Shown: positions 7,078 through 40,768 of the stretch, piece by piece
Layout of the letters: each line of letters opens with the position of its first letter
Position numbering within the stretch: the first letter of the stretch is position 1
Origin: an uncultured Gammaproteobacteria bacterium
GTDB lineage: Bacteria > Patescibacteriota > Patescibacteriia > Magasanikbacterales > GWA2-37-8
Reading direction: 5' to 3'
Assembly (NCBI GenBank): GCA_964465205.1
Contig: CAYXJO010000002.1
Coordinates: 26,350 to 90,349 of the forward strand
DNA: 64,000 bases
Program-made: the position numbers and the translations under genes
Notes under the pieces: generated by a model
What the model was told of the DNA's origin: nothing
The model's database searches: none
What the model saw: only the letters and a program-made list of their open reading frames with translations

Positions 7078-7130
7078 AAGCCCCGAGCACGCTAGCGTTT
7101 TGTGCTATTGTGCTGCGGGGCGAGGGTGGT
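7078..7130 (-). terminator. Rho-independent terminator (GCCCCGCAGCAC...GTGCTCGGGGC + UUUUU on minus strand)
   Basis: Long GC stem with T-run directly 3' of the 7146..7823 gene. Confidence 0.6.
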
Positions 7131-7145
7131 AGAGCGTTTGGCGCT

Positions 7146-7823: not shown

Positions 7824-8034
7824 TTCAGCTCAAGTTAGTGTGCTAACATTACAGCCGCGACTTTTAAATATAGCACATTTTGGCACTTTTGTCAATGGTT
7901 TATACAATATATTGATTCTAAAAGTCGTCTGCTGTGGATAACTTGTGTACGACCGGATTGGTATGAAATTTATTTTGGCTAAAATAAGCCAAAAAGGTAA
8001 AAAAACTTGACAAACACTTATCCCCATGTTCAAT

Positions 8035-8063
8035 TTGACAAAACATCAAATATATAGTAATAT
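8035..8063 (+). promoter_or_regulatory. Sigma70-like promoter TTGACA-N17-TAATAT about 390 nt upstream of rpoB
   Basis: Exact -35 and near-consensus -10 with 17-nt spacer, read from the sequence. Confidence 0.4.
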
Positions 8064-8330
8064 GAAGCTACTTTGAAAACTTCTTACCCAAGTTTTTACC
8101 AAATTAGGCTAATATTAGCCAAGACGTGCGGCAAATCGCCCAAGTGTCTTCTAGCTGCATGCAAGGTACGTAAAAATTATTTCATGTCAACCTTGCTTTT
8201 TTTCGCTAAATTATAATAAAAATTGATTTCCACTTTCCAAAAAGCGGAAATTTTTTGTTGTCAGCTTTTTAAAAATTCAGGAAATTTTTTATCAAGTTTT
8301 AAAATTGATAATTAGATATTTTTAGCGAGG

Positions 8331-8399
8331 ATAGTAGATATGTATTTTACGTGCCCTTCGACCGTAGGGAGCTTGGGCACTAAAATACATATCTACTAT
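8331..8399 (+). promoter_or_regulatory. Long near-perfect inverted repeat (25-bp arms, 18-nt loop) in the rpoB 5' leader; candidate RNase III processing or attenuator hairpin
   Basis: atagtagatatgtattttacgtgccc ... gggcactaaaatacatatctactat, located 57 nt upstream of the rpoB ATG. Confidence 0.45.
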
Positions 8400-8455
8400 C
8401 CAAGTGAAATAATTAGTTATTAATTTTAAAAATAAAAATAAATAAAAAATTTCCT

Positions 8456-11400
8456 ATGCCCGTATTCAAACGTCAGCCGCTCAAAACACAAGAGCGCCAA
8501 TATTTTACCAAGAATCTCAACGCCATGGCGTTGCCGAACTTGGTAGAGATCCAGCGCAATTCGTATGATTGGTTTTTGAAATTCGGCGTCAAAGAATTAT
8601 TTGACGAAGTTTCTCCAATCACGGATTTCTCTGGCCGCGATTTGGAACTGTATTTGGAAGATTATTATTTGGATGAACCGCGTTTCGACGAGGTGACTTG
8701 TCGTACTCGTAATATTACTTTCGAAGCACCTCTGCGCATTACCGCTCGTCTGCTCAACAAACGCACCAATGCCAGCAAATCCCAAGAAATTTATTTGGGC
8801 GATGTGCCGATGATGACCAATCGTGGTACCTTTATTGTGAACGGTATCGAACGTGTGGTGGTATCCCAGCTTATTCGTAGCGCCGGTGCTTTTTTTACTG
8901 CCGAGACTGTCCGCGGTCGCCGTTTCTATGGCGCCAAAATTATTCCGAATCGCGGTGCTTGGCTTGAAATCGAAACCGACCAAAGCAATGTAATGTGGGT
9001 GAAGGTTGATCGCAAACGCAAGGTGGCGGTGACATCTTTGCTGCGCGCTTTTGGTATGCAAACCGATGAAGAGTTGCGCGCCGCCGTAGCCGATGTGAAT
9101 AAACATCCGACCATTGATTACATGGAGGCTACCATCAAAAAAGATGTGGCCCATAATATGGATGAAGGTTTGATTGAAGTTTACAAACGCATTCGTCCGG
9201 GCGATCTGGCAACAGCCGATAACGCCAAATCACTTATCTATGCGATGTTCTTCAATTTTGATCGCTATGATTTGGGCAAAGTCGGTGTTTACAAATTCAA
9301 TACCAAATTTGATCTTAATTATTCTGACGAAGATTACGACAAAAAAGATAATCGAGTTTTGTCTTTGGAGAAATTATTGTTGGTGGTAAAAGAAGTGATT
9401 CGTCTCAATGTGACTCAAGAAGAAGCCGATGATGTGGATCATCTTGGCAACCGCCGCGTGCGCGCGGTGGGTGAGCTAGTACAGAATCGTTTTCGTGTCG
9501 GTTTGGCTCGTATGGAACGTATCGTCAAAGACCGCATGAGCACCTATGCTATCGAGGAATTGAATCCGAATAAATTGGTGAATGCGCGTCCGGTGACCAG
9601 TGCGATTCGTGAGTTTTTCATGAGTTCGCAGATGTCACAGTTCATGGATCAAACCAACCCGTTGTCTGAACTCGAACACAAACGTCGTCTCTCGGCCTTG
9701 GGCCCAGGCGGTTTGTCTCGTGATCGTGCTGGCTTCGAAGTGCGCGATGTGCATACTACCCACTATGGTCGCATTTGTCCGATTGCCACTCCAGAAGGTC
9801 CGAACATTGGTTTGGTAAACCATTTGTCTAGTTTTGCCCGCATCAATGAATTTGGTTTTATTGAAACTCCTTATCGTAAAATTCTCAAAGAAGTAGAAAA
9901 CAAAGCCGAGCTCACCGAAGGCGAAATTTTGCGTGGTGATATTGAAGGTATAAAGGATGGTACTTTGATTACCAAAGAAGTCGCCGCCAAACTTGCCAAA
10001 GCCAAATTACAAAAAATTCCGGTGCGTCCACGCATGACTTCCGAAATTATTTATCTCAACTCTTTCCGCGAAGAAAAAGTGATCACTGCCGCCGCGACTG
10101 TAAAGACCGACGACAAAGGTTATTTCTTGGACGAGGCGGTACCGGCCCGTTTGCATGGCAACCCGGGCGTAGCCACTGTGGATCAGTTGGATTATATCGA
10201 TGTGGCCTCTTCACAAGTAGTTAGTGTGGCCACTTCCTGTATTCCATTTTTGGAACATGATGACGCCACCCGCGCTCTCATGGGCACCAACATGCAGCGC
10301 CAGGCAGTACCTTGTATCCACCCCGAGCCACCGCTCGTCGGCACTGGTGTGGAACGCGAAGCGGCCAATTATACCGGCCAACAAGTGATGGCCGATGAAG
10401 ATGGTGAAATTACTGAAGTGGATGGCGCTCATATAGTACTCACTTCCAAAAAAGGAAATAAATATACTTATAATTTAAATAAATTTGTTCGCTCCAATGC
10501 CTCCACTTGTATCAATCAACAGATTTTGGTGCAATTGGGAGATAAAGTAAAAAAAGGCCAGGCTTTGTCCACCGGCCCGTGCGTGGCTAATGGTGAAGTT
10601 TCGGTTGGTCAGAATGTTTTGGTGGCCTATATGGCTTGGGACGGCTTCAACTATGAAGACGCGGTGATCGTTTCCGAACGTGTGGTCCAAAAAGATCGCT
10701 ATACTTCTATTCACATCGAAGACTACACCACTGATGTACGAAACCAAGTTGGGTCCGGAAGTGGTGACCGGCGACATCCCAAATGTCAGTGAAGAAAAAT
10801 TGAAAAATCTCGACAGCGAAGGCATCGTCCGTATTGGTGCCGAAGTAAAATCCGGCGACATCTTGGTGGGTAAAATTACTCCCAAAGGTGAAACCGAATT
10901 ATCCGCCGAAGAAAGATTGCTCCGTGCCATCTTTGGTGAAAAAGCGCGCGACGTCCGCGATTCATCTTTGTATTTGGAACACGGCGAACACGGCAAAGTA
11001 ATTGGTATTCAAATCTTCTCTGCCGAAAATGGCGACAAACTCGAACCGGGTATCATCAAGCAGGTTCAGGTCAAAGTAGCTGATATGCGCAAAATTCAAG
11101 TCGGCGACAAGATGGCCGGCCGTCATGGTAACAAAGGTGTAATTTCGCGCGTAGTACCAGCCGAAGACATGCCGTTTTTGGAAGACGGTACTCCGATCGA
11201 CATTATTTTGTCACCGCTCGGCGTTATTTCTCGTATGAACCTGGGGCAGCTGCTCGAGACTCATTTGGGTCTGGCCGCCAACGCCCTTGGCTACAAAGTA
11301 GCCACTCCGGTGCTCAATGGTATCAATGAAGAACAAATTCGTGCCGAGCTCGAAAAAGCTGGATTGCCGGTAGATGGCCAAATGCAATTATACGATGGTC

Positions 11401-11867
11401 GCACCGGTGAAGCTTTTGATACCAAGACTACAGTTGGCTACAATTACATGCTCAAACTCAACCACATGGTGGAAGATAAAATCCATCAACGTTCTATCGG
11501 TCCGTACAGTCTTATCACTCAACAACCGCTTGGTGGTAAAGCGCAGTTTGGTGGCCAGCGTTTTGGTGAAATGGAAGTTTGGGCCATCGAGGCTTATGGT
11601 GCCGCTCATACTTTGCAGGAAATTTTGACTATTAAATCCGACGATGTGCCTGGTCGCTCCAAAGCCTACGAAGCAATCATCAAGGGCGAGCAAATCAGTC
11701 GCGTCAATTTACCGGAATCATTTAATGTATTAGTGCGAGAGCTCAAAGGTTTGGGTCTGGATGTGGAGCTGCTCAAACGTAGCGAATCGGGCGAGTATGT
11801 CCTGGCGAGTACTCTAGCCGAACAACAAAAGGTCGAAGCCGGAGAAAATACGGAAGAACAGAAATAA
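8456..11867 (+). CDS. rpoB: RNA polymerase beta subunit RpoB, interrupted by an apparent +1 frameshift near 10739-10742 (ORFs 8456..10792 and 10680..11867)
   Basis: Both ORFs show RpoB homology. Frame 1 gives ...[10 protein letters not shown] then junk to a stop. Frame 2 resumes [19 protein letters not shown]..., the conserved continuation. One extra base at the cgaaacc site (or 2 nt missing) explains the split. Confidence 0.85.
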
Positions 11868-11895
11868 TTAATCACTAATCATTAATTATAAATAT

Positions 11896-16499: not shown

Positions 16500-17231
16500 A
16501 TGTCTGGTCACAGTAAATGGCACAATATCCAAGCCCGAAAAGGCAAACAGGATGCGGCCAAAAGTAATGTTTTTTCTAAATACGCCAAACAAATTATGGT
16601 TGTGGCGCGCGCGGGTGGGGGAGATCCAACTGCGAATTTTTCGTTGCGTCTGCTAATCGACAAATCCAAAGCTGCTGGTATGCCCAAAGATAATATCGAA
16701 CGTGCAATCAAACGCGGTACCGGCGAATCAAATGATGGCGTGCAAATGGAAGAGGCCTTGTACGAAGCGTTCGGACCGGGTGGTACCGCTATACTCATCA
16801 AATCAATTACCGACAACAAAAATCGCGCGAGTTCGGAGATTAAACATATTATCAGCACTCACGGTGGTAATATGGGTGGTGCGGGAAGTGTGCAGTGGAT
16901 GTTTGGCCAGTGGGGGGTGATAGTATTTGCCAAAAATAAAATTGCCGAAAAGAATTTGAACGAAGAAGATTTGCAAATGCAATTGATTGAAGCGGGCGCG
17001 GAGGATATTATTGTTGATGAGGAAATTGAAATCAAAACCAAAGTAGAAAATTTACAAAAAGTTTTATTGAAATTAAAAGAATTTGGCATGGAACCAGATG
17101 AGTCTGGTATTGGGTGGGTCGCTAAAGATAAGGTGGTAGTAGATGACTCCGCTCAAAATAAATTGGAATCAATATTTTCCGCTTTTGAAGACAACGACGA
17201 CGTAGATGACTATTGGACTAATGCCGAATAA
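16500..17231 (+). CDS. YebC/PmpR (TACO1) family transcriptional regulatory protein
   Basis: MSGHSKWHNIQARKGKQDAAKSNVFSKYAKQI... is the DUF28 signature. Conserved yebC-ruvC gene pair. Confidence 0.9.
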   Translation: MSGHSKWHNIQARKGKQDAAKSNVFSKYAKQIMVVARAGGGDPTANFSLRLLIDKSKAAGMPKDNIERAIKRGTGESNDGVQMEEALYEAFGPGGTAILIKSITDNKNRASSEIKHIISTHGGNMGGAGSVQWMFGQWGVIVFAKNKIAEKNLNEEDLQMQLIEAGAEDIIVDEEIEIKTKVENLQKVLLKLKEFGMEPDESGIGWVAKDKVVVDDSAQNKLESIFSAFEDNDDVDDYWTNAE

Positions 17232-17233
17232 CT

Positions 17234-17749
17234 ATGTCAAAATCAGAAATCGTCTTGGGCATTGATCCTGGCTTCGGTCGGGTAGGATACGGGCTGGTCG
17301 AGCGCGGCGGACGCAATGATTGGCATGCGCTTGATTGGGGTTGTATCGAAACTTCTCCCAAAAAAGAATTTGTGGAACGCCTGCAAGAAATTTGTGATGC
17401 GGTCACTGCGCTCATAAAAAAATATCAACCGGAGATTATCGCCGTCGAAGAATTATTTTTTTTCAAAAATGTTACTACGGCTATTCAGGTTGGCCAAGCG
17501 CGTGGTGTGATACTGCTCGCCGGGGTCCAGGCTGGTCTGAAAATTTGTGAATTCACTCCCCTACAAGTCAAACAATCGCTCACCGGCTATGGTCGGGCGG
17601 AAAAAGCCCAGATGCAAAAGATGGTAGCCATGCTTTTGGGTATAAAGGGTAAAATTAAATCCGACGATGCCGCCGACGCCCTAGCGATTGCTCTGGCGGC
17701 TGGTCAGACAGCCCGTTTTGAGCGACGTGTAGCCAAATCTTGTCGCTAG
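17234..17749 (+). CDS. ruvC: Holliday junction resolvase RuvC
   Basis: LGIDPGFGRVGYGLVE N-terminus and catalytic acidic residues. Size is 171 aa. Confidence 0.9.
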   Translation: MSKSEIVLGIDPGFGRVGYGLVERGGRNDWHALDWGCIETSPKKEFVERLQEICDAVTALIKKYQPEIIAVEELFFFKNVTTAIQVGQARGVILLAGVQAGLKICEFTPLQVKQSLTGYGRAEKAQMQKMVAMLLGIKGKIKSDDAADALAIALAAGQTARFERRVAKSCR

Positions 17750-17777
17750 GTAAAAACAATTAAGTTATCCACACCGG

Positions 17778-17808
17778 CCACGCTTAGTGGCCGGTGTTTT
17801 TTATGGTA
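17778..17808 (+). terminator. Rho-independent terminator after ruvC (acaccggccac..gtggccggtgt + TTTTTT)
   Basis: Perfect 11-bp stem with T-run. Confidence 0.6.
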
Positions 17809-17830
17809 TAATAAAACCGGTCTAATTCTA

Positions 17831-17848
17831 TATATTGATATCAATATA
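17831..17848 (+). promoter_or_regulatory. 18-bp perfect palindrome TATATTGATATCAATATA overlapping the promoter/leader of the XRE gene; candidate autoregulatory operator
   Basis: Perfect dyad read from the sequence, just downstream of an extended -10 (tggtataat). Confidence 0.45.
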
Positions 17849-17868
17849 TTGATAGAATAAATCAGCCT

Positions 17869-18081
17869 ATGAACCCTGGCGGAGGACAGCTGGGAGCCAA
17901 TATAAAACGAATCCGACTCGAGAAAGGAATCTCGCAAGAAGCTTTGGCACGCAAGGCTGATTTAAAGTTGTCGAATTTGGCAAAGGTCGAAGGTGGATTT
18001 AATAGCAATCCCACGTTGCAGACACTGACCGCGATCGCGAATGTTTTGACCGGCGGCAGTATTGATCGATTGCTAAAATAG
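17869..18081 (+). CDS. XRE-family helix-turn-helix transcriptional regulator (70 aa)
   Basis: IKRIRLEKGISQEALARKADLKLSNLAKVEGG is a classic HTH_3. Its stop lies 2 nt before the giant-gene ATG. Confidence 0.75.
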   Translation: MNPGGGQLGANIKRIRLEKGISQEALARKADLKLSNLAKVEGGFNSNPTLQTLTAIANVLTGGSIDRLLK

Positions 18082-18083
18082 AT

Positions 18084-21000
18084 ATGCCTAATTCTTTGTC
18101 ACAATTCGGCAAGAAAATTTTCCAAACCACCCTCGGAGTAGTTTTGACATTGTCCGCGCTGGTGGGAATTGGGGAGTGGGTTGCGCATGCCGCCACACCG
18201 CCGCTCATGATTACTTATCAAGGAAAAGTTTTGGTGAGTGGTGCGCCCGCAACTACTTCGCTCAACATGTCTTTTGTAATTTATAATTCTGTAAGTGGTG
18301 GTACCGCTCTGTATTCCGCATCCGGCACTTTGTCCACTCCGCTAGAAGTGAATGTCACTCCTTCGAATGGTTTGTTCTCGGTGAATTTGGGTGACACTAC
18401 CGCCGCTCCGATTACTAATGTTTTGGATCCAGATATATTCAAAAATAATACTAATCTATTTTTACAAGTGACCATCAATGGTCAGACGTTGTCACCGCGC
18501 AAACGTATTACTGCTTCACCGTATGCGTTCAATGCTTTGTATGCGGCGACATCTACATATGCCGAAAACGCTGGCACCTCCACTTACGCGAGTACGGCTG
18601 GATCTGCCAATACCGCCAACACATCCAACTATGCGAATAACGCCGGTACTTCGACTTATGCCACTAATGCCGCTTCGGCGTTAACTGCAGTGACCTCAAC
18701 CTATGCGGATCTAGCTGGCAATTCTAATTTGTTTGCCGGCCTCTCGACTTCTTCGTTCCTCATGCCGGGCAATGATGCCAGTATTACGGGGGTGTGGAGT
18801 TTCCTTAGCGATTTGACTATTAGCAGTACGTCTATTGGCCAAGCTAATATTACTAATCTCCGTGTGATTGGCAATAGTTATGGTCTGCAACTGGCGGATA
18901 TTAATGGCAGCAGTACATTAATTTACAATACTGGCACCTATGCCGATCCGGCTTGGCTCACATCTTTGGCGGCTAGCAAAATAGTAGGTACGGTTGGTAG
19001 TGCTTTGATAGCAAATACGTCAACCTATTCGTATAACGCGGGCACGTCCACTTATGCATATTTTGCCGGCACCTCTACTTATGCAAATATCGCCGGTTCC
19101 GCTTTGACCGCTGTTACCGCTACCTATGCACTCAATGCCAGCACCTCGAACTATGCCAATAATTCCGGCAAGCTCGAAGGGTATGGAGCCAATGATTTCT
19201 TGGCCAGCTCTACTATGGCATTGGGTGTTACAGGTTATATGGCGTATTATCCAGCAGATGGTCGTAATATTGCCGCTACCAATACTATATATATATCTGG
19301 TGGTAGAATCGGTTTAGGCACCACTGCTTTGGATGCTTCGCTTGCAAAAGTCACAATTGGTGGTGATATATTTGCTCAGAATACTAGTGGCGCCCAGTTA
19401 CGCTGGAACTCACAAGGTTTGCTGCTGCGTAGCCCGACCGGTACGTTGCCGCGTTTGGATCTGCGTAATGATAATAATGAATTTGATTTCCGCATTCAAT
19501 TAGCTGGCACCAAAGGATTAGAGTTATTCTCTGGTCCGAGCTCGACTAATCAGGTGAGTAGATTGAAGATTGATGATAATGGTTTGGTTGGCATTAATAA
19601 CTCTTCGCCGAATTATACTTTGGATGTTGATGGTGATATTAATCTCACCGGAGCTTTGCGTGTTAATAATATTGATTACAGTTCTTACTTTATTGATGGT
19701 GTGGGTAGTAATGGGCAAGTATGGACTTCAGACGGTAGTGGTCGAGGATATTGGTATACTTTGCCTAGTGCTAGCCAGGCCTCTGGCGTGGGTACTTCTA
19801 CCGCGAATTTGTTTGCTGTGTACAACGGTGCTAGCACAGTGACCGGAACCAATGAGTTATATTTGGATGGGAGTTATATCGGAGTGGGTACTACGACGCC
19901 GCATTATAAATTGGATGTGTCTGGTGATCTTAACATTTCCGGTGCGGTTCGAATTGGTGGTGCTGATTACAGCCAATACTTCATTAATGCCACCGGCACT
20001 CTTGGGCAGTTCTGGTCATCGAATGGTACTGGCAATAGTCGTGGTTCGTGGGTTAATTCTCCGGTGAATTCCGGCTTGATCGGGCAGATCGCCTATTATG
20101 CCGCTGGTGGCGGAACAGTTAGCGGTACTAGTACTATATATGTATATAATGGCAAAATTGGTATTGGTGGGAATACCAATCCTAACTATGCCTTGGATGT
20201 ATCCGGCGCTATTAATAGTACCGGTGGTTATTTGATCAATGGCGTGAATTACAGCCAATACTTTATTGATTCGGCCGGCAGTGCCGGGCAAGTTTGGGTG
20301 TCTAGTGGTACTGGTCGCGGTTATTGGTATACCTTACCTTCTGGTAGTGGTTATGGAGTTGGTACTAGTACTGTTGGGTATATGGCAGTGTATAGTAGTG
20401 ACAATGTTGTCACGGGCACTGGTGCGATGATGGTGAGCGGTACAGCGATTTTGATTAGCACCAGTGGTATTTATAGTGCCAGTGGCAATCCGGCGGCTCT
20501 TACTATTGGTGGTGCTTTGTATGCGGACACGTTGTATGCCAGTGGCAATGGTATCTTTATGGACAATAACAAAATTATTGGTATTGATTCCGGTATATTA
20601 AATGTGTATGGAGCAAACAATCAATCGATGCAATTACAAACTTATGGATCCGGTAATTTGAGTTTGGTGAGTAATAGCACTGGGCAGATGTTGCTACAAA
20701 CCGGTAGTGGATTGATGCGATTATTTAGCAATACCGGCGGTATATCGGTGAGCACCACGAATTCCGCGATCACAGTGGCAGTGGGCGGAAACAACGCGCT
20801 TACATTGCGTGCGTTACAAGGAAGTATTACTATTAGTGCTCCGACTATTACAGTGTCCGGTACTATTTCGGGAGCAGCAACCTGGCATGGTAATACCATT
20901 GCCGTGGGTTATGGCGGAACGGGCGCGACTACATTTGCGAGCAATGGTTTGTTGGTGGGGCATGGCACTAGTGCAGTTGGTACTATTACAGTGCCAACCA

Positions 21001-24000
21001 CCACGTCGTTCTTGTATTGGAATGGCGCTAGCTATGATTGGACGCCGATTGAACAATTGAGTACCCTCACTGGTTCAGTAAATTCTTCGACTCAGGGATA
21101 TGTCGCATATTATGATTCCAGCGGCAATAATTTATCTGGCACGTCTACTGTATTTATCCAAAACGGTAGAGTTGGAATTGGTACTGTTTCGCCTACCGGC
21201 ACATTAGAAGTCTCGGCCAATAGTTTGAATACTGTTGGACATTTGGTAGTAAATAGAGGTAATAATGGTGGTCTTGGTGGACAACTCACCTTACGTAATA
21301 ATAGTGCTGGTGGTAGTGGAACGTCGGCGGCATTGGCATTTGAATTAGACGGCACTACAGCGTTTGGTAGTGATGGCAGTGATCAGGCTAATGCGCAAAT
21401 CCGTGCTCAAGTGACTGGTGCTTCGGATAAATCTACCGCCATAATATTTGATACTTGGAATGGCAGCACTAGCGCTGAGCGAATGCGTATTAATGCGAAT
21501 GGCAATGTGGGTATTGGCACTACGGGTGGTGTCTATGCGCTCACTGTGAATGGGGATCTTAATTTGACTACTTCTACGGCCGGAGCCAGTAGTACTTTGC
21601 GTATTAATGGTGTTGATGTTGGTCAATATTTTATCAATGGTGCTGGTGTAAGTGGACAGGTGTGGGCATCGCTTGGGTCTGGTCGTGGTTATTGGGCCGA
21701 TATCTCCAGTTTACCGATTGCCGGTGCGGTGGGTACTTCTACTGCCGGCAATATTGCCTGGTATGATACCACCGGCGCCAATGTGACCGGTACGGCGAAT
21801 ATATTTATCGACCCAGCGACTGGATATTTTGGTGTGAATAATACGGCACCGGCGACACGCATGCAGATCAAGGGTGCGGATAACAAAGATAGCGGTCCGA
21901 TATTAAGTTTGGTTGGCAATGCACCCAATCAATTTGAGGGTGGACGCATTAGGTTCCTAGAAGATCAATCGCAAGGATATTTGGGTGCATATATCCAATA
22001 CAATGCCAGCGGAGATGTTTTGAACATTGGCGTGCATGCCGCGGCCGACTCGGCCACATCTTCTGATACCAATGCAATTAGCGTATTGCGATCCAATGGT
22101 TATGTAGGTATTGGCAATTCTAATCCAACTTATAAATTTGATGTGAGCGGAGATGTGAATATTGGTGGCGCGGGTGTATTGCGTCTGGGTGGTACGAATT
22201 ATAGTCAGTATTTTATTTCATCTGCCGGTGTGTACGGGCAAGTGTGGACATCAGATGGGTCAGGTGCTGGCTGGTGGTCGGATCCAAGTATCATTGAAAG
22301 CGATCCGATATTTATGGCGGCCTCGTCTAGCTTCTCTCGTACTACCCACAACCATGCCGGTGTATATGAACCCGCCTTCTCGGTGCTTACTATCGGCAAA
22401 GGTGGTACCGGCACATCTACCATATCATCCAATGTGGGTTCACTATTATATAGCAATGGCACGAGTTATCAATTTACTAATGCCGCTACCGCTAACTATG
22501 TACTCATGTCTCAAGGTGGTGTACCGACGTGGGTGACGACTTCGACGCTTGGGATTGTGGTTGGCGCTGGATCGGGTACGATAAATTCCGGTACCGCCGG
22601 TCAAGTGGCGTATTATGCTACCAACGGCACGGCAGTGAGTGGTACATCCAGTTTATTTATTGCTACGAATGGTTACGTTGGAGTGGGGACGAGCACTCCG
22701 CCATCAACCCTTACTGTGAGTGGAACATTGAATGTGTTGGTAGGAGGCGCTACATATACCATGTCTAATTCTAGCAATATAGCAGGGTGGTTTAATGTAA
22801 TGAACAGCACATTAAATGATTATGCTACTGTTTCCATGTTCCATCATCAGGTAAATAGTACACCTGCGAATGGCTTTGGCACAAAAATTGGTTTAGCTGG
22901 TACAGGTTATGATGGTGTGCAAGATTATACTATGGGGCAAATTGGTGCTGTCTGGCAGAGTGCCTCTAATTATTATGGGCAACTACAATTTTTTACTAGA
23001 AATGGAGTTGACTTTACTGGCACCAATAGCCATATACCAAAAATGGTCATCAGTGGGTACAGTGGCAATGTGGGTATTGGTACCACAACTCCAGATTATA
23101 AGTTGACTACGGCGGTTAGCGCCGATTATGATGGTATTGTTTTGAAGGATACTGTGAATAAATTACTTTTTGCCGTAGTCAAGGAGGGCAACGCTGGTTA
23201 CTTTAATTTATATGATAATGGTGTAAAGAAGATCATGTTGCATCCTGCGGCTAACAGCTATTACAATGGCAGTGGTAATTTTGGTATTGGTACCACTACT
23301 CCTGGCGCTTTGTTAGATATTGGCGGTGGTGTTGTAAATACTAGTATTAGTAATGCCCGGTTATTAATTACAGCTAATGCCGATGAAGCCAGTGGTGTGC
23401 AAATGTACAATTCTTCTGCTGGCACTGCTGCTGATTTCCGATTTAGTGTTATAAATAACAATCAAAATGAATATTTAGCTTTTGCTACTCCAGGCGATGG
23501 CAATACTGCGTCACTATTTGGATTGACCAGAAGTACTGCCAACTATATATTCAACAATGCGTTTGGCGCGGGGGTGTCCAGGCACTTAGCTATCGGTACA
23601 GTGAGAAATGGTGATCTCGTTTTTGCGGCCAGTAGCACAGAGAGAATGAGGATAGCTAATACCGGCTATATCGGTATCGGGACTACCACACCCAATTCTT
23701 TACTTAGTTTGTACGGAGGCGCGAATGATACACGTATAAAAATGAATTTTGTTCCGACAGGTAATATGTATAATGGGTTGGAGTTACAAAAGAACGGCAT
23801 ATTTAAAGGCGGAATATTCTATTCTAATACTAGAGACGTTCTGGAATTGTGGGGTAGTCAGGCTAGAATGTTATCAGTCAGTTCAACAAATATTTCGTTA
23901 CTAGGGTCTGGAGTGGAAAGATTAACAGTAAATAGCAGTGGCAATGTTGGTGTTGGTACAACTACACCTACTTATCAATTGGATGTAATAGCTTCTTCTA

Positions 24001-27000
24001 CTGCGAATCCGTTACGTATTGGGTCAACCGTAACTAGCAGTATTTTGGTAGTAAATAGCAGTGGCCATGTTGGTATTGGTACTTCTTCCCCACGGTATCA
24101 ATTACACATTGTTAATTCTGCGCCGCGCGAACAGGCGGTTTATTATCAAAATCTTCATAATAGTTACAGAAGCATGATTGTGGCAGATGCGTCCACCGAT
24201 GGATTGGGGGCCAATGGGTCTAGAATAGATTTTCGTGCTCACCCCACCGGATATAGTGAGACGTTATTTGGCACAACTATGGCAGGCAAATCTGCACTCA
24301 TATCCATATCCACTAATGGACTTATTGTTGGGGAATATAATGATCAGCCGGTTATTTTTGGCACTAACAATAAAGAGAGAATGAGGATTGCTAATACCGG
24401 CAATGTCGGTATTAGTACCACCTCCCCCAACTATCCTCTCACCGTAAACGGCGATATTAACATCACCAGCTCTACCGGTGGCATTCCAGCTTTACGTATC
24501 AACGGCACTGATATGAGTCAGTACTTCATTACCTCTGCTGGCACTGCTGGACAGATATGGCAATCTGACGGCACTGGTGCGGGAGAGTGGGTGAATACTT
24601 CTACACTAGGTATTGTCGGCGGCGGTATTACTTCCGAGTCTGATCCGATCTTCATGGCCGCCTCTTCTAGCTTTGCTTCTTCTACTCACAACCACGATGG
24701 TACCTACGAACCTGCCTTCTCTATTCTTACTATCATCAAAGGTGGTACCGGCACCTCTACTATCTCATCCAATGTTGGTTCGTTACTATATAGTGATGGT
24801 AGTGCCTACCAATTCACCAATGCCTCTACCGATAACTACGTACTCATGTCTCAAGGTGGTGTACCGACGTGGGTGACGACTTCGACGCTGGGTTTGGTGG
24901 CTGGGATTGGTTCGGGCACAGTTAATATTGGCACTGCTGGCCAGATCGCCTACTATGCCACCGATGGTGCTGCTGTGAGTGGCACATCTAGTTTGTTTGT
25001 AGCTGCGAATGGGTATGTGGGTATCGGTACTACTACACCTCGTTATTCTGTTGACGCGGGCACTGGTACTATCAGTGCTCTACGATTCCGTGTAGATAGT
25101 AAAGCTATGGCCTATTGGGATACGGCTGCTCCTAATTTACCGTCTGCTTATCCCAGTGGCACTTTAGTACTTGGGTTTGCCGGTACTGTTGGCAGTGCAG
25201 CATTTCCGAGCAGGTTAAATGCATATTCTACTTCCTATTTAGAAACGTATTACAATTCCGGCAATCCATATTTTGCGTTTATTGGTGGTAATGTGGGTGT
25301 AGGTACTACTTCTCCGTCCGCATCTCTATCTGTTATTGCTGCCACATCCACCGGTAGTATTTTCCAAGTCGGCACCACTACAGCGCAAAATATTTTAACA
25401 GTATTGGCGAATGGCCATGTTGGTATAGGTAGCTCTACCCCGAACTCTCCTTTGGTTTTGCAATATTCCAAATCAGGTTTTGGGCTCACCATTGCCAATT
25501 CGTTAGCGACAAATTATTCTTTGATGAGATTTTTGGGGACTGGGCGTTCTTACACTATTGGCGTTGGTAACGCCAGTGAGACTAGTTATGGTCTGGCCAA
25601 TAAGTGGTTTGTGTTTGATGCTACAAGTAATACAGCGCGCATGGTGGTTGATTCTGTTGGCAATATTGGTATTGGCACTACCACCCCAGATGCATCTTTG
25701 TCTATTTACACCACAACGGGTGCTGCTGGGATCATTTTGTCAGACTTTAATTCAAGTGAAGGTGGTGCATTAAGTATATATGATGGTGCCACTAGCGGAT
25801 TTTTGCCTACCATTAAAGGGCAATCAAATGGGGTTGGTGGGTATGGTGTGGCACTCTATGGCGTTATTCCACCAGCAAATGATGTAGTGAATGTCGGTGG
25901 TGGTGGAGTATTAATTAGAGCCCTTAGATCAGATAATACTGTTCTACAAAATGCCAATGTACTTAGTGTCAATAACTACACCACCAATTTGATGACTGTA
26001 ATGGCGAATGGTTATGTTGGTATTGGTACTACCACACCCGGATCCTTGTTGGATATTTATGGTAATAGTACCAATGCAGTTATGCGTATTTTGAGTGGAA
26101 ATACAAGCAATTATTCTTATATCACGATGGGTAGGGCTTCAGTCGAAATGTCTATGGGTGTAGCGGCTGCCGCGGATAATGGATTAGTGGGTACTGTAGC
26201 TGGTGATGTTTGGTTGAAGAATGTAAATACTGCCAATAAATTGTCTATAGGTATTGGGTCTGGCGCGCCTGCAATTACAGTGGCCAGTAGTAGCTATATA
26301 GGTATTGGCACTACCACTCCCAATTATCGCTTCACAATTGCGGGTACGTTTACCGGCAACGATCGTACAGCTATTAATTTAGCAAATTACAGTACCAATA
26401 GCGACGCTGCCATATCTATTAGATTCCAGTCCGGCACTTCTACTGGTTTTATAGGAGCGTATGATGCAGCTTATGCTTCTTTGCCGGGTTTAGGGAATAC
26501 TTTTGGTGTCAATGCTGTGGGTAACGCTACTACTTCATTATTCTTGATGTCTGGTAGCGCTTCTGGTGTGATGCGTTTTTATACTGGTGGTAATAACGAA
26601 AGAATGCGAATTGATTCTGCTGGCAATGTCGGTATTGGCACCACTACGCCAGCTTATAAATTCCAAGTGTATATTGACGCTAGTAACGAAGGTCATGTTA
26701 GCGCTACTGGTGATTGGGCGCGTACGTCCGATTCGCGGCTCAAGAAAAATGTTAATACGCTTACAAGTGCCTTGCAGATTATTGGCGCGTTACGTCCGAT
26801 ATCTTATGATCCGATTACCGGATCAAATACCGCGTCCGGTACCAGTTTGGGCTTCCTGGCTCAAGAAGTGGAGCCGCTTGTGCCGCAAGCCGTAGACACT
26901 AATTCAATAACAGGATACAAGTCAGTAGCTTATGGTCAGTTTATTCCGATCTTAACTGCCGCCATCAAAGAACAGCAAGCACAAATTGATGCGCTTACCA

Positions 27001-27215
27001 TTGGCTTGGCGAATAAGTCCACTTCGACATTGTCTGAGTTGACTCTCAACAGTAGTATCACCGGATTTACCAATAAAATTGATTTCAAAAATCATGTGAG
27101 TTTTGATGCAGATACGGTTGGTCGTGCCAGCATTTTGTCTGGCGCCACTAGCACCCGAGTGATATTTACCAAACCGTATGATGAGTTGCCAGTGATTACC
27201 GTTACGGCTATATGA
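18084..27215 (+). CDS. Giant (3043 aa) secreted, repeat-rich, tail-fibre-like surface protein with C-terminal intramolecular-chaperone auto-processing (Peptidase S74-like) domain
   Basis: N-terminal signal/anchor (TLGVVLTLSALVGIGEWVAHA). About 2700 aa rich in G/T/S/N with at least 6 copies of a ~60-aa module (GIGTTTPxYKLDVSGDxN...YSQYFIxxAGxxGQVWxSDGSGxGYW). C-terminus SDSRLKKNVNTLTSALQIIGALRPISYD...GFLAQEVEPLVPQAV...YGQFIPILTAAIKEQQAQIDAL matches the tailspike/endosialidase chaperone domain. Confidence 0.8.
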   Translation: MPNSLSQFGKKIFQTTLGVVLTLSALVGIGEWVAHAATPPLMITYQGKVLVSGAPATTSLNMSFVIYNSVSGGTALYSASGTLSTPLEVNVTPSNGLFSVNLGDTTAAPITNVLDPDIFKNNTNLFLQVTINGQTLSPRKRITASPYAFNALYAATSTYAENAGTSTYASTAGSANTANTSNYANNAGTSTYATNAASALTAVTSTYADLAGNSNLFAGLSTSSFLMPGNDASITGVWSFLSDLTISSTSIGQANITNLRVIGNSYGLQLADINGSSTLIYNTGTYADPAWLTSLAASKIVGTVGSALIANTSTYSYNAGTSTYAYFAGTSTYANIAGSALTAVTATYALNASTSNYANNSGKLEGYGANDFLASSTMALGVTGYMAYYPADGRNIAATNTIYISGGRIGLGTTALDASLAKVTIGGDIFAQNTSGAQLRWNSQGLLLRSPTGTLPRLDLRNDNNEFDFRIQLAGTKGLELFSGPSSTNQVSRLKIDDNGLVGINNSSPNYTLDVDGDINLTGALRVNNIDYSSYFIDGVGSNGQVWTSDGSGRGYWYTLPSASQASGVGTSTANLFAVYNGASTVTGTNELYLDGSYIGVGTTTPHYKLDVSGDLNISGAVRIGGADYSQYFINATGTLGQFWSSNGTGNSRGSWVNSPVNSGLIGQIAYYAAGGGTVSGTSTIYVYNGKIGIGGNTNPNYALDVSGAINSTGGYLINGVNYSQYFIDSAGSAGQVWVSSGTGRGYWYTLPSGSGYGVGTSTVGYMAVYSSDNVVTGTGAMMVSGTAILISTSGIYSASGNPAALTIGGALYADTLYASGNGIFMDNNKIIGIDSGILNVYGANNQSMQLQTYGSGNLSLVSNSTGQMLLQTGSGLMRLFSNTGGISVSTTNSAITVAVGGNNALTLRALQGSITISAPTITVSGTISGAATWHGNTIAVGYGGTGATTFASNGLLVGHGTSAVGTITVPTTTSFLYWNGASYDWTPIEQLSTLTGSVNSSTQGYVAYYDSSGNNLSGTSTVFIQNGRVGIGTVSPTGTLEVSANSLNTVGHLVVNRGNNGGLGGQLTLRNNSAGGSGTSAALAFELDGTTAFGSDGSDQANAQIRAQVTGASDKSTAIIFDTWNGSTSAERMRINANGNVGIGTTGGVYALTVNGDLNLTTSTAGASSTLRINGVDVGQYFINGAGVSGQVWASLGSGRGYWADISSLPIAGAVGTSTAGNIAWYDTTGANVTGTANIFIDPATGYFGVNNTAPATRMQIKGADNKDSGPILSLVGNAPNQFEGGRIRFLEDQSQGYLGAYIQYNASGDVLNIGVHAAADSATSSDTNAISVLRSNGYVGIGNSNPTYKFDVSGDVNIGGAGVLRLGGTNYSQYFISSAGVYGQVWTSDGSGAGWWSDPSIIESDPIFMAASSSFSRTTHNHAGVYEPAFSVLTIGKGGTGTSTISSNVGSLLYSNGTSYQFTNAATANYVLMSQGGVPTWVTTSTLGIVVGAGSGTINSGTAGQVAYYATNGTAVSGTSSLFIATNGYVGVGTSTPPSTLTVSGTLNVLVGGATYTMSNSSNIAGWFNVMNSTLNDYATVSMFHHQVNSTPANGFGTKIGLAGTGYDGVQDYTMGQIGAVWQSASNYYGQLQFFTRNGVDFTGTNSHIPKMVISGYSGNVGIGTTTPDYKLTTAVSADYDGIVLKDTVNKLLFAVVKEGNAGYFNLYDNGVKKIMLHPAANSYYNGSGNFGIGTTTPGALLDIGGGVVNTSISNARLLITANADEASGVQMYNSSAGTAADFRFSVINNNQNEYLAFATPGDGNTASLFGLTRSTANYIFNNAFGAGVSRHLAIGTVRNGDLVFAASSTERMRIANTGYIGIGTTTPNSLLSLYGGANDTRIKMNFVPTGNMYNGLELQKNGIFKGGIFYSNTRDVLELWGSQARMLSVSSTNISLLGSGVERLTVNSSGNVGVGTTTPTYQLDVIASSTANPLRIGSTVTSSILVVNSSGHVGIGTSSPRYQLHIVNSAPREQAVYYQNLHNSYRSMIVADASTDGLGANGSRIDFRAHPTGYSETLFGTTMAGKSALISISTNGLIVGEYNDQPVIFGTNNKERMRIANTGNVGISTTSPNYPLTVNGDINITSSTGGIPALRINGTDMSQYFITSAGTAGQIWQSDGTGAGEWVNTSTLGIVGGGITSESDPIFMAASSSFASSTHNHDGTYEPAFSILTIIKGGTGTSTISSNVGSLLYSDGSAYQFTNASTDNYVLMSQGGVPTWVTTSTLGLVAGIGSGTVNIGTAGQIAYYATDGAAVSGTSSLFVAANGYVGIGTTTPRYSVDAGTGTISALRFRVDSKAMAYWDTAAPNLPSAYPSGTLVLGFAGTVGSAAFPSRLNAYSTSYLETYYNSGNPYFAFIGGNVGVGTTSPSASLSVIAATSTGSIFQVGTTTAQNILTVLANGHVGIGSSTPNSPLVLQYSKSGFGLTIANSLATNYSLMRFLGTGRSYTIGVGNASETSYGLANKWFVFDATSNTARMVVDSVGNIGIGTTTPDASLSIYTTTGAAGIILSDFNSSEGGALSIYDGATSGFLPTIKGQSNGVGGYGVALYGVIPPANDVVNVGGGGVLIRALRSDNTVLQNANVLSVNNYTTNLMTVMANGYVGIGTTTPGSLLDIYGNSTNAVMRILSGNTSNYSYITMGRASVEMSMGVAAAADNGLVGTVAGDVWLKNVNTANKLSIGIGSGAPAITVASSSYIGIGTTTPNYRFTIAGTFTGNDRTAINLANYSTNSDAAISIRFQSGTSTGFIGAYDAAYASLPGLGNTFGVNAVGNATTSLFLMSGSASGVMRFYTGGNNERMRIDSAGNVGIGTTTPAYKFQVYIDASNEGHVSATGDWARTSDSRLKKNVNTLTSALQIIGALRPISYDPITGSNTASGTSLGFLAQEVEPLVPQAVDTNSITGYKSVAYGQFIPILTAAIKEQQAQIDALTIGLANKSTSTLSELTLNSSITGFTNKIDFKNHVSFDADTVGRASILSGATSTRVIFTKPYDELPVITVTAI
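22290..22700 (+). repeat. Intragenic duplicated segment (copy A) of the giant gene, ~80-85% identical to 24640..25050 with a 49-nt identical core
   Basis: tactcatgtctcaaggtggtgtaccgacgtgggtgacgacttcgacgct is present at 22498-22546 and 24838-24886. Flanking protein sequence ESDPIFMAASSSF..THNH..YEPAFS..GGTGTSTISSNVGSLLYS is repeated. Confidence 0.7.
24640..25050 (+). repeat. Intragenic duplicated segment (copy B) of the giant gene
   Basis: See copy A. Confidence 0.7.
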
Positions 27216-27224
27216 TTAAATGAT

Positions 27225-27713
27225 ATGTACTATGGTGTAGATGATGCGAATGCGGACGGATTCTCGGTTGTGATGAGTAAGCCAATTGAGCGCAATGTAT
27301 CGTTTAACTGGCATGCGTTCGGGTCCAACGATCCAAAATCGCACAATAGCGATGGTACGATTACTAGTATTAGTATGTTGCCAGATGGCACCATGGCTAT
27401 AACTAGTTCCACCGTCGATGATACTAGTGGCGACACGCCAGTGGATAATAGTTCTAGTGCAACATCGGACACAGATACAACTTCTTATATCGATAGTGGT
27501 GCTACTTCATCCACCGAAAGCATGCCTCCAGTAGACACACCATCAAGTACCGAACCCACTCCGGCGGTTGATGTGCCGGCTCCACCAGCAGATGTGCCTA
27601 CACCACCAGCGGATACTTCCACGCCTCCTGCAGACACATCTGCTCCACCGGCCGATACTCCTCCCGCCGACACATCGCCAGTGGATACCTCACCCCCTAG
27701 CGAAACTCCATAA
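27225..27713 (+). CDS. In-frame downstream ORF (162 aa): completes a lectin-like beta-sandwich begun in the giant protein, then a Pro/Thr/Ala/Asp-rich low-complexity tail (PPADTS repeats). Likely a readthrough, pseudo- or mis-called C-terminal extension rather than an independent gene.
   Basis: Same frame as 18084..27215, separated only by TGA plus 9 nt without stops. No SD. Domain motif continues across the stop (..VIFTKPYDELPVITVTAI*LNDMYYGVDDANADGFSVVMSKPIERNVSFNWHAFG). Confidence 0.4.
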   Translation: MYYGVDDANADGFSVVMSKPIERNVSFNWHAFGSNDPKSHNSDGTITSISMLPDGTMAITSSTVDDTSGDTPVDNSSSATSDTDTTSYIDSGATSSTESMPPVDTPSSTEPTPAVDVPAPPADVPTPPADTSTPPADTSAPPADTPPADTSPVDTSPPSETP

Positions 27714-27721
27714 TTAAAAAT

Positions 27722-28183
27722 ATGAACAAAAAATTCATTCTAGTATTACCAGATATACGCAGTGCTCACAATGTGGGAGCAATGTTTCGCACTGCCGACG
27801 GTGCTGGTGTGAATAAGATATATTTATGCGGATATACAGCTCAACCACCTCATCCGCAGTTGGACAAAGTTTCGCTAGGGGCGGAGACTTGGATGCCGTG
27901 GGAATATGTGCGCCAGGCCGGCAGATTATTGAAACGACTACATGCCGAAGGGTACCACATCGCGGCGTTGGAACAAACAAAAAATAGTGTTAATATAAGT
28001 AAATGGACACCAAAATTGCCGCTGGTACTAGTAGTAGGCAATGAAAAAACCGGCGTTACTAAAAGTTTATTGAAGTATTGCGATACGGCGGTCGAACTCC
28101 CCATGCACGGCCGAAAAAATAGTTTAAACGTGAGTGTCGCCGCCGGCATTGCAATGTATCACATTTCTAATTTTAAAAAGTAA
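27722..28183 (+). CDS. SpoU/TrmH-family (SPOUT) RNA 2'-O-methyltransferase
   Basis: LVLPDIRSAHNVGAMFRTADGAG...LVLVVGNEKTGV...SLNVSVAAGIAMY motifs. Confidence 0.8.
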   Translation: MNKKFILVLPDIRSAHNVGAMFRTADGAGVNKIYLCGYTAQPPHPQLDKVSLGAETWMPWEYVRQAGRLLKRLHAEGYHIAALEQTKNSVNISKWTPKLPLVLVVGNEKTGVTKSLLKYCDTAVELPMHGRKNSLNVSVAAGIAMYHISNFKK

Positions 28184-28957: not shown

Positions 28958-29473
28958 ATGAAAAAAGTTGCTATAATTATCGCGAGTCATGGTTATCAGC
29001 CTGTGGAGTATGGTGCGCCCAAACACATACTTGAAGCTGCCGGGTTGACAGTGGTCACAATTAGCGATGAGCCGGGCGAGGCCGAAGCGGCCTATGACGG
29101 CAGTCGTACCAAAGTGGATGTGGTTTTGACACAAGTACAAGTAGGTGATTACGACGGTGTGTTTTTGGTGGGTGGTCCGGGCGCGCCTAGACATTTAGAA
29201 AATGAGAACGTTTATAAAATCATGCGCGAAGTGGCGACTAGCGGTAAACCGTGGGGAGCCATTTGCTATTCTACCCGCGTATTAGCACATGCTGGAATTT
29301 TGAAGGACAGAAAAGTCACCGGTTGGGACGGAGATGGGGAGTTAGAAGGAATTTTAATACGCGCGGGGGCTGAATATGTACGCGAACCGGTTTGGGTGGA
29401 TAGGGATTTGATTACTGCTGTCGGGCCGAAGTTTGCCGAGGCTTGGGGGAAAGAGATTTTGAAGAAGTTGTGA
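28958..29473 (+). CDS. DJ-1/PfpI family protein (class I glutamine amidotransferase-like fold)
   Basis: VAIIIASHGYQPVEY...GVFLVGGPGA...GKPWGAICYS with nucleophile-elbow Cys. Confidence 0.85.
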   Translation: MKKVAIIIASHGYQPVEYGAPKHILEAAGLTVVTISDEPGEAEAAYDGSRTKVDVVLTQVQVGDYDGVFLVGGPGAPRHLENENVYKIMREVATSGKPWGAICYSTRVLAHAGILKDRKVTGWDGDGELEGILIRAGAEYVREPVWVDRDLITAVGPKFAEAWGKEILKKL

Positions 29474-38356: not shown

Positions 38357-40768
38357 TTATTTAAGTGAGTATTTACTTTTGTTGTTTTTGTAACGAGTAA
38401 TTGCCAGCCAAATGATTTCTTCCACCAAGTCGGCATATTCCATGTTAATGATTTTTGCCGATGACACAAAATTACTATCAAAATCAATAGATGGGTGTGG
38501 GTTAATTTCGATTACAAATGGATTGCCTTCTTTGTCCACGCGAAATTCTACCCGGCCGTAGTCTTTGCAACCCATGATGCGATAGGTATCTAGAGCCACT
38601 TCGGTAATTAATGATTCTAGATTTTTTGAAATATTTTTGGGCGGACGTTGAATAGTAACATTGTTGTAATTATAATTTTGATTTTCTGTCCATTTCATTT
38701 CATAAGGGAAAAATGGCCAATTGCCCGCCGGCATTTTGTCAAAAATGTAGCGCGATAGCGGCAATACACGCAGATCTTGGTCTGTATTGCCCAGTATGCA
38801 AACATCGTATTCCTCACCTTCAATGAATTCTTCTACTAGCGCTGGACCGCCGTATTGATCGAATATTTCCTTTATTTGGTTGCGTAGTTGTTCTTGGTTT
38901 ACTACTATCGATTTGGCGGTAATGCCATTGCTGCCATCTTGGCTAGCTGGTTTGACAATTAGAGGGAAACGCAGATCCTCATCTATTTCTTCATCTGGCG
39001 TGGTAGCGTAATCCCATTTTGGTATTGGTATTTCGTGAAATTCAAGTATTTTTTTCATTTTTATTTTATCCAGACACATGCCCAGAGTCGAGTAGTTGGA
39101 TCCGGTAAATGGTATTTGCAGTATTTCAAGCATGGCCGCCATATGAGGTTCGTAGGTGCTAGAGCTGTTTAACATGTCGCATAGGTTGAACACCACGTCA
39201 ACGTCACTTTCGCGTAGTTGGTTAAAAGCTTTGATATGATCGGAGAAGTCGTAGTAAGATATTTTGTAGCCGCGTTGTTGCAGCATGGCGCCAAATTGCT
39301 GGATTTCTTCGGCACTGTATTGATCCGGGTCCAGATTGTTATCCATACCTTCGACCGCGATACCAATATGTAGTGAGCGTTTATTCTCGGCTGTTACGCG
39401 TTTTACTTTTTCCAAACGTGCGGCTTTGAGTAGAGCTTTTTTGTTTAATACCGCCGCGGACAGGCGAGTTTTGCGCGAAGTTTTACCAAGGGAAGATTGT
39501 TGATCAAATTTAGCCACTTTGTATTTAATGTAGTTCAAAGCGTCACGCAGATTATCTTGCGCATCTAGAAAATTTTCTCCTGATACTGTAAGCCACCCCA
39601 AACTGTCGTATCCTTCTGGCGGCAATAATACCGGCTCACCCACGTCTTTATATAAATGTATTTCTTCAAAATATTTTTTACGTCGTAATTCGTCATCAAC
39701 ATTTAATTCCACCAATAATCCCGACGATTCAGGGTGGAGGTCCCAGCCTACAATATACTTTTTTGGTCGATCGGGTTTACGAATTTTAATATATTGTCCA
39801 GTGGCGATTTTTACTGCGTTTTCGATTAGGTCCAGGTCCCAAGAAGCGCGATTGTATGAGTAAACGTAATCTCCGCCCATACGCAAATTGAGTTCGATTG
39901 GCACTGGGCCTTGCGGGGTAGATTTGGCTTCATAATGCACTAGACAGTTTTCGATGCCGAATTTTTCCAGGGTCTCTTCCGCCATGTCAATCAGAGCCTC
40001 TTGATTGTGTTCGGGTAGGGTCGAGGGGATAGATTGCCCTTTGTCGAGAAAGAATTGATCCCAAGTTTTATTGAAGTTATCGGATATGGTGTAGAACTTT
40101 ACTTTACCATTTTGTAATACCACATCAATATCCACTTCGTCTCCATCTAGAAATTCTTCAACAAAAATATCCAATCCATCAGACAGGGCAGATTCGGTTT
40201 CAGAAGATATGTTTTTCTTTATGTAATTGTAAGTATTAGTTAGTTCTTCTTTGTTTTCCACACGCACCACATAGGCACTGCTGGCGCCATAAGCCGGTTT
40301 AATTACCAGTGGGAAATTAAAACTACTAGCGATCATTTCTAAATCTTCGCTATTTTTAGCCATTTTGTGGCGGGGAGCGCGAATGCCGTGCTTTTCGCAC
40401 AGCTCGCGGAATAGATATTTATTACGAACTTGTTTGGCAACATTATATGGTACGCCAATAAAATTAAATCGGTCTGTTATTTTGGAAGTAAGTAGTACGT
40501 CATCTTCCCAAAAGGTGAGCGCACCGTCAATTTTTTTGTTTTGATCATTTTTAATATAGGCATCAACCGCCTTGATAGCTTCGCTATGGTTGTAAGTGTC
40601 GGCGATAATCCACTCGTCAATATATGGTTGCGCCCAATTTTTTTCTTTGTTGAGTACAATAATATACAGACCCAATTTTTTTAGGCGCTGTAGTATGAAT
40701 TTCTTTTTTGGGGAGCCGGTGTTAACCAGCAAAATTACCTTCCCGTTAAGTTCGGAGTTGTTTTCCAT
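38357..40768 (-). CDS. Tandem ATP-grasp domain ligase (803 aa; two Ddl/RimK-like ATP-grasp modules)
   Basis: Module 1 FPLVIKPAYGASSAYVVRV...FVEEFLDGDEVDIDVV. Module 2 RFPLIVKPASQDGSNGITAK...LVEEFIEGEEYDVCILG...GRVEFRVDKEGNPFVIEINPHPS. Confidence 0.75.
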   Translation of the reverse strand: MENNSELNGKVILLVNTGSPKKKFILQRLKKLGLYIIVLNKEKNWAQPYIDEWIIADTYNHSEAIKAVDAYIKNDQNKKIDGALTFWEDDVLLTSKITDRFNFIGVPYNVAKQVRNKYLFRELCEKHGIRAPRHKMAKNSEDLEMIASSFNFPLVIKPAYGASSAYVVRVENKEELTNTYNYIKKNISSETESALSDGLDIFVEEFLDGDEVDIDVVLQNGKVKFYTISDNFNKTWDQFFLDKGQSIPSTLPEHNQEALIDMAEETLEKFGIENCLVHYEAKSTPQGPVPIELNLRMGGDYVYSYNRASWDLDLIENAVKIATGQYIKIRKPDRPKKYIVGWDLHPESSGLLVELNVDDELRRKKYFEEIHLYKDVGEPVLLPPEGYDSLGWLTVSGENFLDAQDNLRDALNYIKYKVAKFDQQSSLGKTSRKTRLSAAVLNKKALLKAARLEKVKRVTAENKRSLHIGIAVEGMDNNLDPDQYSAEEIQQFGAMLQQRGYKISYYDFSDHIKAFNQLRESDVDVVFNLCDMLNSSSTYEPHMAAMLEILQIPFTGSNYSTLGMCLDKIKMKKILEFHEIPIPKWDYATTPDEEIDEDLRFPLIVKPASQDGSNGITAKSIVVNQEQLRNQIKEIFDQYGGPALVEEFIEGEEYDVCILGNTDQDLRVLPLSRYIFDKMPAGNWPFFPYEMKWTENQNYNYNNVTIQRPPKNISKNLESLITEVALDTYRIMGCKDYGRVEFRVDKEGNPFVIEINPHPSIDFDSNFVSSAKIINMEYADLVEEIIWLAITRYKNNKSKYSLK

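Follow-up and report, generated by a model that had tools for sequence, protein, structure and literature searches.

In the characterised Peptidase_S74 proteins, known from the endosialidase system, the S74 domain aids the folding of a trimeric fibre and then cuts itself off at a conserved Ser residue. The eukaryotic protein MYRF carries an internal, self-cleaving S74/ICA domain which is followed by further C-terminal parts. In this study, we analyzed a stretch of 64,000 nt (contig CAYXJO010000002.1, positions 26,350 to 90,349; hereafter the window) from an uncultured Patescibacteria bacterium of the candidate phyla radiation (CPR). It contains the gene of a giant fibre protein with an S74 domain and, C-terminal to it, a beta-sandwich resembling the H-type lectins. 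A single in-frame TGA interrupts this gene within the sandwich. Very probably, the TGA is a point lesion in an ancestrally continuous gene and not a decoding signal.

The giant protein resembles the phage endosialidases, tailspikes and tail fibres with S74 domains (MEROPS S74) in the S74 match itself, in an S-D-x-R-x-K motif and in the long repetitive fibre upstream. It differs from them in that the gene is cellular, with a product of about 3,200 residues, and in that the S74 domain is not terminal, the lectin-like domain and a low-complexity tail coming after it. An internal S74 domain with additional C-terminal sequence recalls MYRF, and by that likeness cleavage would part an N-terminal trimer from a C-terminal fragment. 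Unlike in MYRF, no transmembrane segment is present past the S74 domain, and the rest of that eukaryotic protein is unrelated, so the comparison is one of analogy only. The parts of the gene around the interruption are the following.

18084..27212 (+): 5' part of the giant gene as recorded, opening with ATG at 18084, 3043 codons.
27057..27341 (+): H-type-lectin-like six-stranded beta-sandwich, residues 2992-3086 of the fused protein.
27213..27215 (+): in-frame TGA, which ends the open reading frame (ORF) 18084..27215; the next base is T.
27216..27713 (+): downstream part in the same frame, 165 codons plus TAA at 27711-27713; it encodes strands 4-6, the H-x-S-D-G-T...D-G-T-M stretch and a low-complexity Pro/Thr/Ser/Asp tail to the C-terminus.
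27225..27227 (+): first ATG past the stop, 9 nt after the TGA, a possible re-initiation codon.
27342-27395 (+): conserved H-x-S-D-G-T...D-G-T-M stretch past the sandwich domain.

The ORF layout, the TGA at 27213-27215 and the same-frame continuation, as described in an initial annotation of this DNA, were confirmed on the sequence. The TGA is followed by the codons TTA AAT GAT ATG with the frame unchanged, and the fused ancestral gene comprises 3,209 codons. The translation reads ...PVITVTAI*LNDMYYGVDDANADGFSVVMSKPIERNVSFNWHAFG... over the stop, and the residues spanning the stop position x are VITVTAI-x-LNDMYYGVDDANADGFSVVMSK. Only 9 of 20,000 base shuffles of the downstream segment are equally stop-free in this frame, and its other two frames contain 6 and 17 stops. 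Within the 64-kb window, no other in-frame TGA with long open flanks falls in a real gene; the remaining two with such flanks lie antisense to rpoC and to an aconitase-family gene.

A search with the protein first gave P0002, which is 34% identical and aligns without gaps over the stop, with V at the stop position. A profile built from the two sequences (window and P0002) was then run against 1.84 billion representative proteins, and yielded 2,241 matches at E<=1e-3, 495 of them at E<=1e-10. A word-indexed search with the domain alone gave no matches, and the exhaustive HMMER search was needed. Continuity and column counts were taken from the best 150 of the 2,241 profile matches, to which all later counts on homologues out of 150 refer. 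Every one of them is covered by one unbroken match over profile positions ~1-94, and no break was found at the stop column. The domain mostly lies 75-130 residues from the C-terminus of large proteins. The motif is therefore continuous over the stop, as initially proposed; neither homologues ending at this point nor a separation of the two halves was seen among the 150.

With a profile made from homologues only, the first half of the window domain scores 60.5 bits over profile positions 6-53 and the second half 39.8 bits over positions 58-96, while the fused sequence scores 110.4 bits in a single stretch. Nineteen of the 22 columns with at least 80% conservation are retained in the window, including eight of the nine downstream of the stop. 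The sole non-conservative change at a strongly conserved column of the domain adjoins the TGA: two codons before it stands Ala (GCT, 27207-27209), where 85% of homologues have Pro and 3 of 150 have Ala. Homology extends past the domain, where HNSDGTITSISMLPDGTM aligns with H[AVS]SDGT...DGTM of P0122, P0128 and P0134. The tails of these three proteins are of low complexity with much Glu, Pro, Ser and Thr, and their median length is 102 residues. At the DNA level, the order is also unbroken over the site in a distant metagenome locus (34% identity).

The fused domain was modelled with X at the stop position. It is predicted to fold as one unit, a six-stranded H-type-lectin-like beta-sandwich with a predicted local distance difference test (pLDDT) score of 94. 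The stop corresponds to residue 53 of the model, within the loop that joins strand 3 (46-51) to strand 4 (59-62). The predicted fold superposes on the H-type lectins Helix pomatia agglutinin (HPA), discoidin (I/II) and SLL-2, with 12-18% identity between the window domain and the solved lectins; the distal domains of phage tailspikes and R-pyocin fibres were also compared. The likeness to H-type lectins, already suggested in the initial annotation, holds for the predicted fold but not for the family profile, as Pfam PF09458 (H_lectin) gave no match at E<=1 to the window's own domain, either fused or in halves. Of 36 homologous domains, 27 do match H_lectin at E<=1, the best at 6.9e-6, though most of these matches are weak. 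Profile continuity and the model together support the conclusion that a single ancestral gene is divided between the two ORFs and that the TGA splits a continuous beta-sandwich.

All 150 homologues have a sense codon where the window has its stop. The column contains G in 67, D in 30, S in 18, E in 12 and A in 9 of them, with few other residues and no W, C, R or L. In the domains nearest to that of the window the sequence is TPVGLHEVY[FY]GV, against TAI*LNDMYYGV in the window itself. In P0122 (locus L084), the closest homologue with DNA and 51% identical in the domain, the codons GTC GGA TTG stand against ATA TGA TTA, so that a single G-to-T change accounts for the TGA. Usage of GGA is normal in the giant gene (54 of 407 Gly codons). 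Judged from these codons, the change would have run from GGA to TGA.

By its codon usage in the window, the organism uses the standard code. In 41 coding segments with 18,109 sense codons, among them 1,416 for Gly and 185 for Trp, no in-frame TGA occurs besides that at 27213, and 901 TGA triplets are found out of frame. The rpoC, ileS and ftsK genes are uninterrupted ORFs, which agrees with the earlier remark that UGA is not generally read as sense here. Stop codons of 40 window genes are TAA in 32, TAG in 6 and TGA in 2. The two genuine TGA stops, at 29471-29473 and 54434-54436, are each followed by a further stop 1-4 codons on. The PfpI-like and leuB-like genes end at TGA exactly at the ends of their family profiles.

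In our preferred account, the TGA would be an ordinary stop that arose by one G-to-T change at 27213 in a GGA Gly codon of a giant fibre gene, which ancestrally would have had 3,209 codons. Translation of the gene as written would stop after strand 3, whereupon the sandwich could not fold and the tail would be lost. The S74 domain and the whole upstream fibre would be unaffected by the stop. If the S74 domain cleaves itself as its motif suggests, the lost part would belong to the fragment that is released, and the cell might then tolerate a real allele.

Such a lesion may reside in the record or in the cells. A consensus or base-call error that exists only in the assembly has a little less than an even chance in our estimate, and a real nonsense allele of very recent origin in the population that was sequenced is likewise a serious possibility; the two are about equally likely. 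The assembly-error version gains weight from a second gene-breaking lesion on the same contig, 16.5 kb from the TGA:

10739..10740 (+): 2-nt deletion in the rpoB gene, in the Arg codon of the conserved DVRETKLG, splitting the gene into 8456..10792 and 10680..11867.

Here the window has GTAC--GAAACC against GTGCGTGAGACC in two independent relatives, MFQR01000039.1 (82% nucleotide identity) and JGI Ga0209211_10008788, and is exactly 2 nt shorter than both. The public protein set of this contig holds the resulting rpoB fragment, MYETKLG... (P0280). A programmed frameshift was considered and rejected, given that GTA-C-GAA offers no slippery sequence and that each relative just has 2 nt more. That the deletion in this essential gene is an assembly error is all but certain. 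With rpoB in single copy, a broken version is impossible as the majority genotype, hence at least one artefactual gene-breaking lesion is present in the assembly, and an error process has acted on this contig. All other genes checked are full length by Pfam and NCBIfam coverage. The broken rpoB means that other odd features of this assembly need a read check before they are interpreted.

On the side of a real allele, large variable surface genes often bear real nonsense alleles, and a relative lacks the giant gene at this position. That relative (L085; JGI Ga0209211_10008788, 5998-13695) was compared with window positions 16500-28183. It keeps the order rpoB-rpoC-yebC-ruvC, and its RpoC falls into the same 90%-identity cluster as that of the window. 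Past ruvC, genes for an AAA-ATPase, a metallophosphatase and a macro-domain protein replace the giant gene, which in the window sits between ruvC and a SpoU-type methyltransferase gene. In an exact-product cluster look-up, the 3043-residue product forms a singleton cluster from one NCBI contig. Look-ups of exact products returned no contig of a strain variant, whether made with the giant protein or its downstream ORF, or with the methyltransferase next to them or the rpoB fragment. A scan of genome contigs found no close orthologue, S74 matches dominating its output.

Several points weigh against the reading as a point lesion or against its two versions. The rpoB artefact is an indel, and substitution errors that happen to create a stop occur less often. 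The intact downstream frame and the start-like context of the ATG at 27225 would also fit a locus that is still somehow expressed. Two TGA stops in 40 genes, each backed within 1-4 codons, are no proof of efficient UGA termination alone. Finally, the codon is known from one contig.

As an interrupted gene in a draft metagenome-assembled genome (MAG), the locus is of an ordinary kind. It shares with such genes the lone in-frame stop in an otherwise intact conserved gene, the recoverable ancestral codon (GGA) and the second gene-breaking lesion on the contig (rpoB). It is particular only in the position of the lost part, beyond a self-cleaving domain, so that a real allele may have a mild effect. 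For annotation, the gene is to be given as one interrupted coding sequence of 3,209 codons, with a flag for a likely pseudogene or assembly error.

Readthrough, re-initiation, an alternative code and phase variation share what is left, and even taken together they are improbable. Nonsense mutation and sequencing error thus survive from the four explanations offered by the initial annotation, and readthrough or recoding and phase variation failed every test that was run here.

Re-initiation would make a split gene of the locus: termination at the TGA and a new start at the ATG at 27225 would give a 3043-residue fibre and a 162-residue polypeptide beginning MYYGVDDANADGF, which perhaps re-associate. 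The lack of a Shine-Dalgarno (SD) motif before this ATG had been noted initially. The motif is indeed lacking, but the argument is void in a genome where, of 29 starts examined in the window, a single one carries an SD-like motif (AGGAG); these starts include 11896, 27722, 41852 and 59428. The leaders of real starts are A+T-rich instead, with a mean of 83% over 18 nt, and often contain TTAAAT-like strings. By this measure the ATG at 27225, preceded by GATTAAATGAT, has a leader (GCTATATGATTAAATGAT, 18 nt, 78% A+T) whose A+T content falls among those of real starts and ranks in the top 6% for internal in-frame ATGs, and the frame behind it is intact. Such a start-like context has a chance of ~0.05, however, and ordinary Leu-Asn-Asp codons explain it. 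No split is found among the 150 best homologues, the half-sandwich of strands 4-6 with the tail is not expected to fold alone, and the public gene call omits the downstream ORF with all five tested start codons. We regard re-initiation as very unlikely.

Equally slight is the chance of programmed UGA readthrough or near-cognate suppression, by which most ribosomes would terminate and a fraction would continue to the end of the 3,209-residue protein; two isoforms would result, as with coat and A1 of phage Qbeta. Such a mechanism would leave the downstream frame intact and conserved, as observed, and UGA is both the leakiest bacterial stop codon and a rare one in this window (2 of 40 genes). Designed extensions are unlike this case, in which the stop is not at a domain boundary but between strands 3 and 4, so that the short isoform would end in an unfoldable half-domain. 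The stop is not conserved among the homologues, and its column has none of Trp, Cys and Arg. The base that follows it, T, makes the strongest UGA termination context in Escherichia coli. A stimulatory RNA structure 3' of the TGA, for which a search had been suggested, was not found: the 96 nt from 27205 form a poorer fold than shuffled sequences do (z +1.69), and 198 of 200 shuffles are at least as good.

A combined form of these two alternatives starts from weak UGA termination in this organism, given that TGA stops are rare, that each is backed by a second stop and that SD motifs are not used. The TGA on the Gly column would then be partly decoded, or translation would restart at 27225. We consider this improbable to the same degree. 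If true, the full C-terminal module would still be made, and the locus might show how the UGA capture known from Gracilibacteria and Absconditabacteria begins.

An alternative code or local recoding, with UGA read as Gly (code 25), Trp or selenocysteine, is scarcely credible. Gly is the commonest residue at the stop column, TGA stops are scarce here, and the UGA-to-Gly reassignment is known in other CPR lineages (PMC8629427, PMC4032931). Among bacteria it is confined to Gracilibacteria and Absconditabacteria (PMC8629427, PMC4032931). The window shares with these clades a CPR host and a UGA on a Gly-dominated column, but it differs in lineage and in that UGA has no sense use elsewhere in the 18,109 codons, 1,416 of them for Gly. 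RpoB and RpoC cluster with records of Candidatus Magasanikbacteria and Amesbacteria, not with the code-25 clades, and the PfpI-like and leuB-like genes terminate at TGA where their profiles end. Against selenocysteine, Rfam reports no selenocysteine insertion sequence (SECIS) element in the window, only tRNA, and a downstream hairpin is lacking. The column contains no Cys in the homologues, and the giant protein is free of Cys. The sole tRNA gene in the window is that of tRNA-Asn, which also speaks against an alternative code.

A phase-variable on/off switch of the fibre's C-terminal module is just as hard to credit: surface fibre genes are typical targets and the region is variable, the relative with the same rpoB-rpoC-yebC-ruvC order having other genes here, but no homopolymer, short tandem repeat or inverted repeat is present within 27100-27330, a base substitution is not reversible at high frequency, and a stop at the 3' end of the gene removes only the last 5% of the protein.

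The architecture of the giant protein upstream of the interruption has the following features.

Residues ~13-36: N-terminal hydrophobic segment, read by eye.
26727..26894 (+): Peptidase_S74 domain, residues 2882-2937, Pfam PF13884.
26727-26744 (+): motif S2882-D-S-R-L-K2887, read from the translation.

The PF13884 match (E 7.1e-10, 39.5-43.5 bits against a gathering cut-off of 22) covers profile positions 1-57 of 58, and the proposal of a Peptidase_S74 domain is thereby borne out. It is the only Pfam domain found in the 3043-residue part. The Ser...Lys dyad motif S-D-x-R-x-K is present where the domain begins, and we take S2882 and K2887 to be the equivalents of Ser911 and Lys916 of endoNF. 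No PDB sequence matched the S74 region at E<=0.01 in a phmmer search. The protein contains many G-x-V-G-I-G-T-x-x-P modules and not a single Cys. Its layout would comprise an N-terminal hydrophobic anchor or signal and about 2,850 residues of repetitive fibre. The putative intramolecular-chaperone domain S74 with its Ser...Lys motif and a short coiled segment would follow, and then the H-type-lectin-like beta-sandwich and an acidic Pro/Thr-rich tail of about 125 residues.

Relatives carry the NCBI name "tail fiber domain-containing protein". An S74 domain lies upstream of the lectin-like domain in at least 71 of the 150 homologues, a lower bound, as the phmmer query was a single sequence, the S74 region of the window. 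By analogy with the characterised S74 proteins, the lectin-like domain and the tail would belong to a released C-terminal fragment, if the S74 domain cleaves here. The lectin-like domain lies C-terminal to the self-cleavage motif, and its earlier description as an adhesin tip is therefore doubtful. Doubt also applies to the "wall-spanning linker", in that the Pro/Thr-rich stretch is the extreme C-terminus and there is nothing beyond to link. The PPADTS-type repeats of this stretch are real, a Pro/Ala/Asp/Thr/Ser repeat with a 21-nt unit in 2.1 copies at 27570-27614.

A literature search on the combination of S74 and H-lectin domains, or on giant CPR proteins bearing both, found nothing relevant. 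The module of S74 chaperone, H-type-lectin-like sandwich and acidic Pro/Thr tail ends thousands of large proteins, as judged from the 2,241 profile matches, many of which exceed 2,000 residues. As an uncharacterised module of giant Patescibacteria proteins, it has some mild interest of its own. Its place after a self-cleavage motif poses a testable question, namely whether the lectin-like part is released or retained on the fibre.

Some other genes of the window have unusual arrangements. At 53459-56112, the leuB-like dehydrogenase gene overlaps (ATGA) that of a fused protein with a LeuD-like small subunit (aa 7-98) and an aconitase/LeuC-like large subunit (aa 140-558); biosynthetic genes of this kind are unusual in a Patescibacteria genome. 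At 38357-40768 (-) lies the gene of a protein of 803 residues that combines two ATP-grasp modules, an N-terminal one like carbamoyl-phosphate synthase and a C-terminal D-Ala-D-Ala ligase. Paralogous aspartate/ornithine carbamoyltransferase genes are found at 45535-46482 and 46977-47984 (-), with an ORF of 157 residues between them. A thymidylate synthase of the ThyX type, encoded at 57954-59414 (-), has 486 residues with two Thy1 stretches, about twice the usual length.

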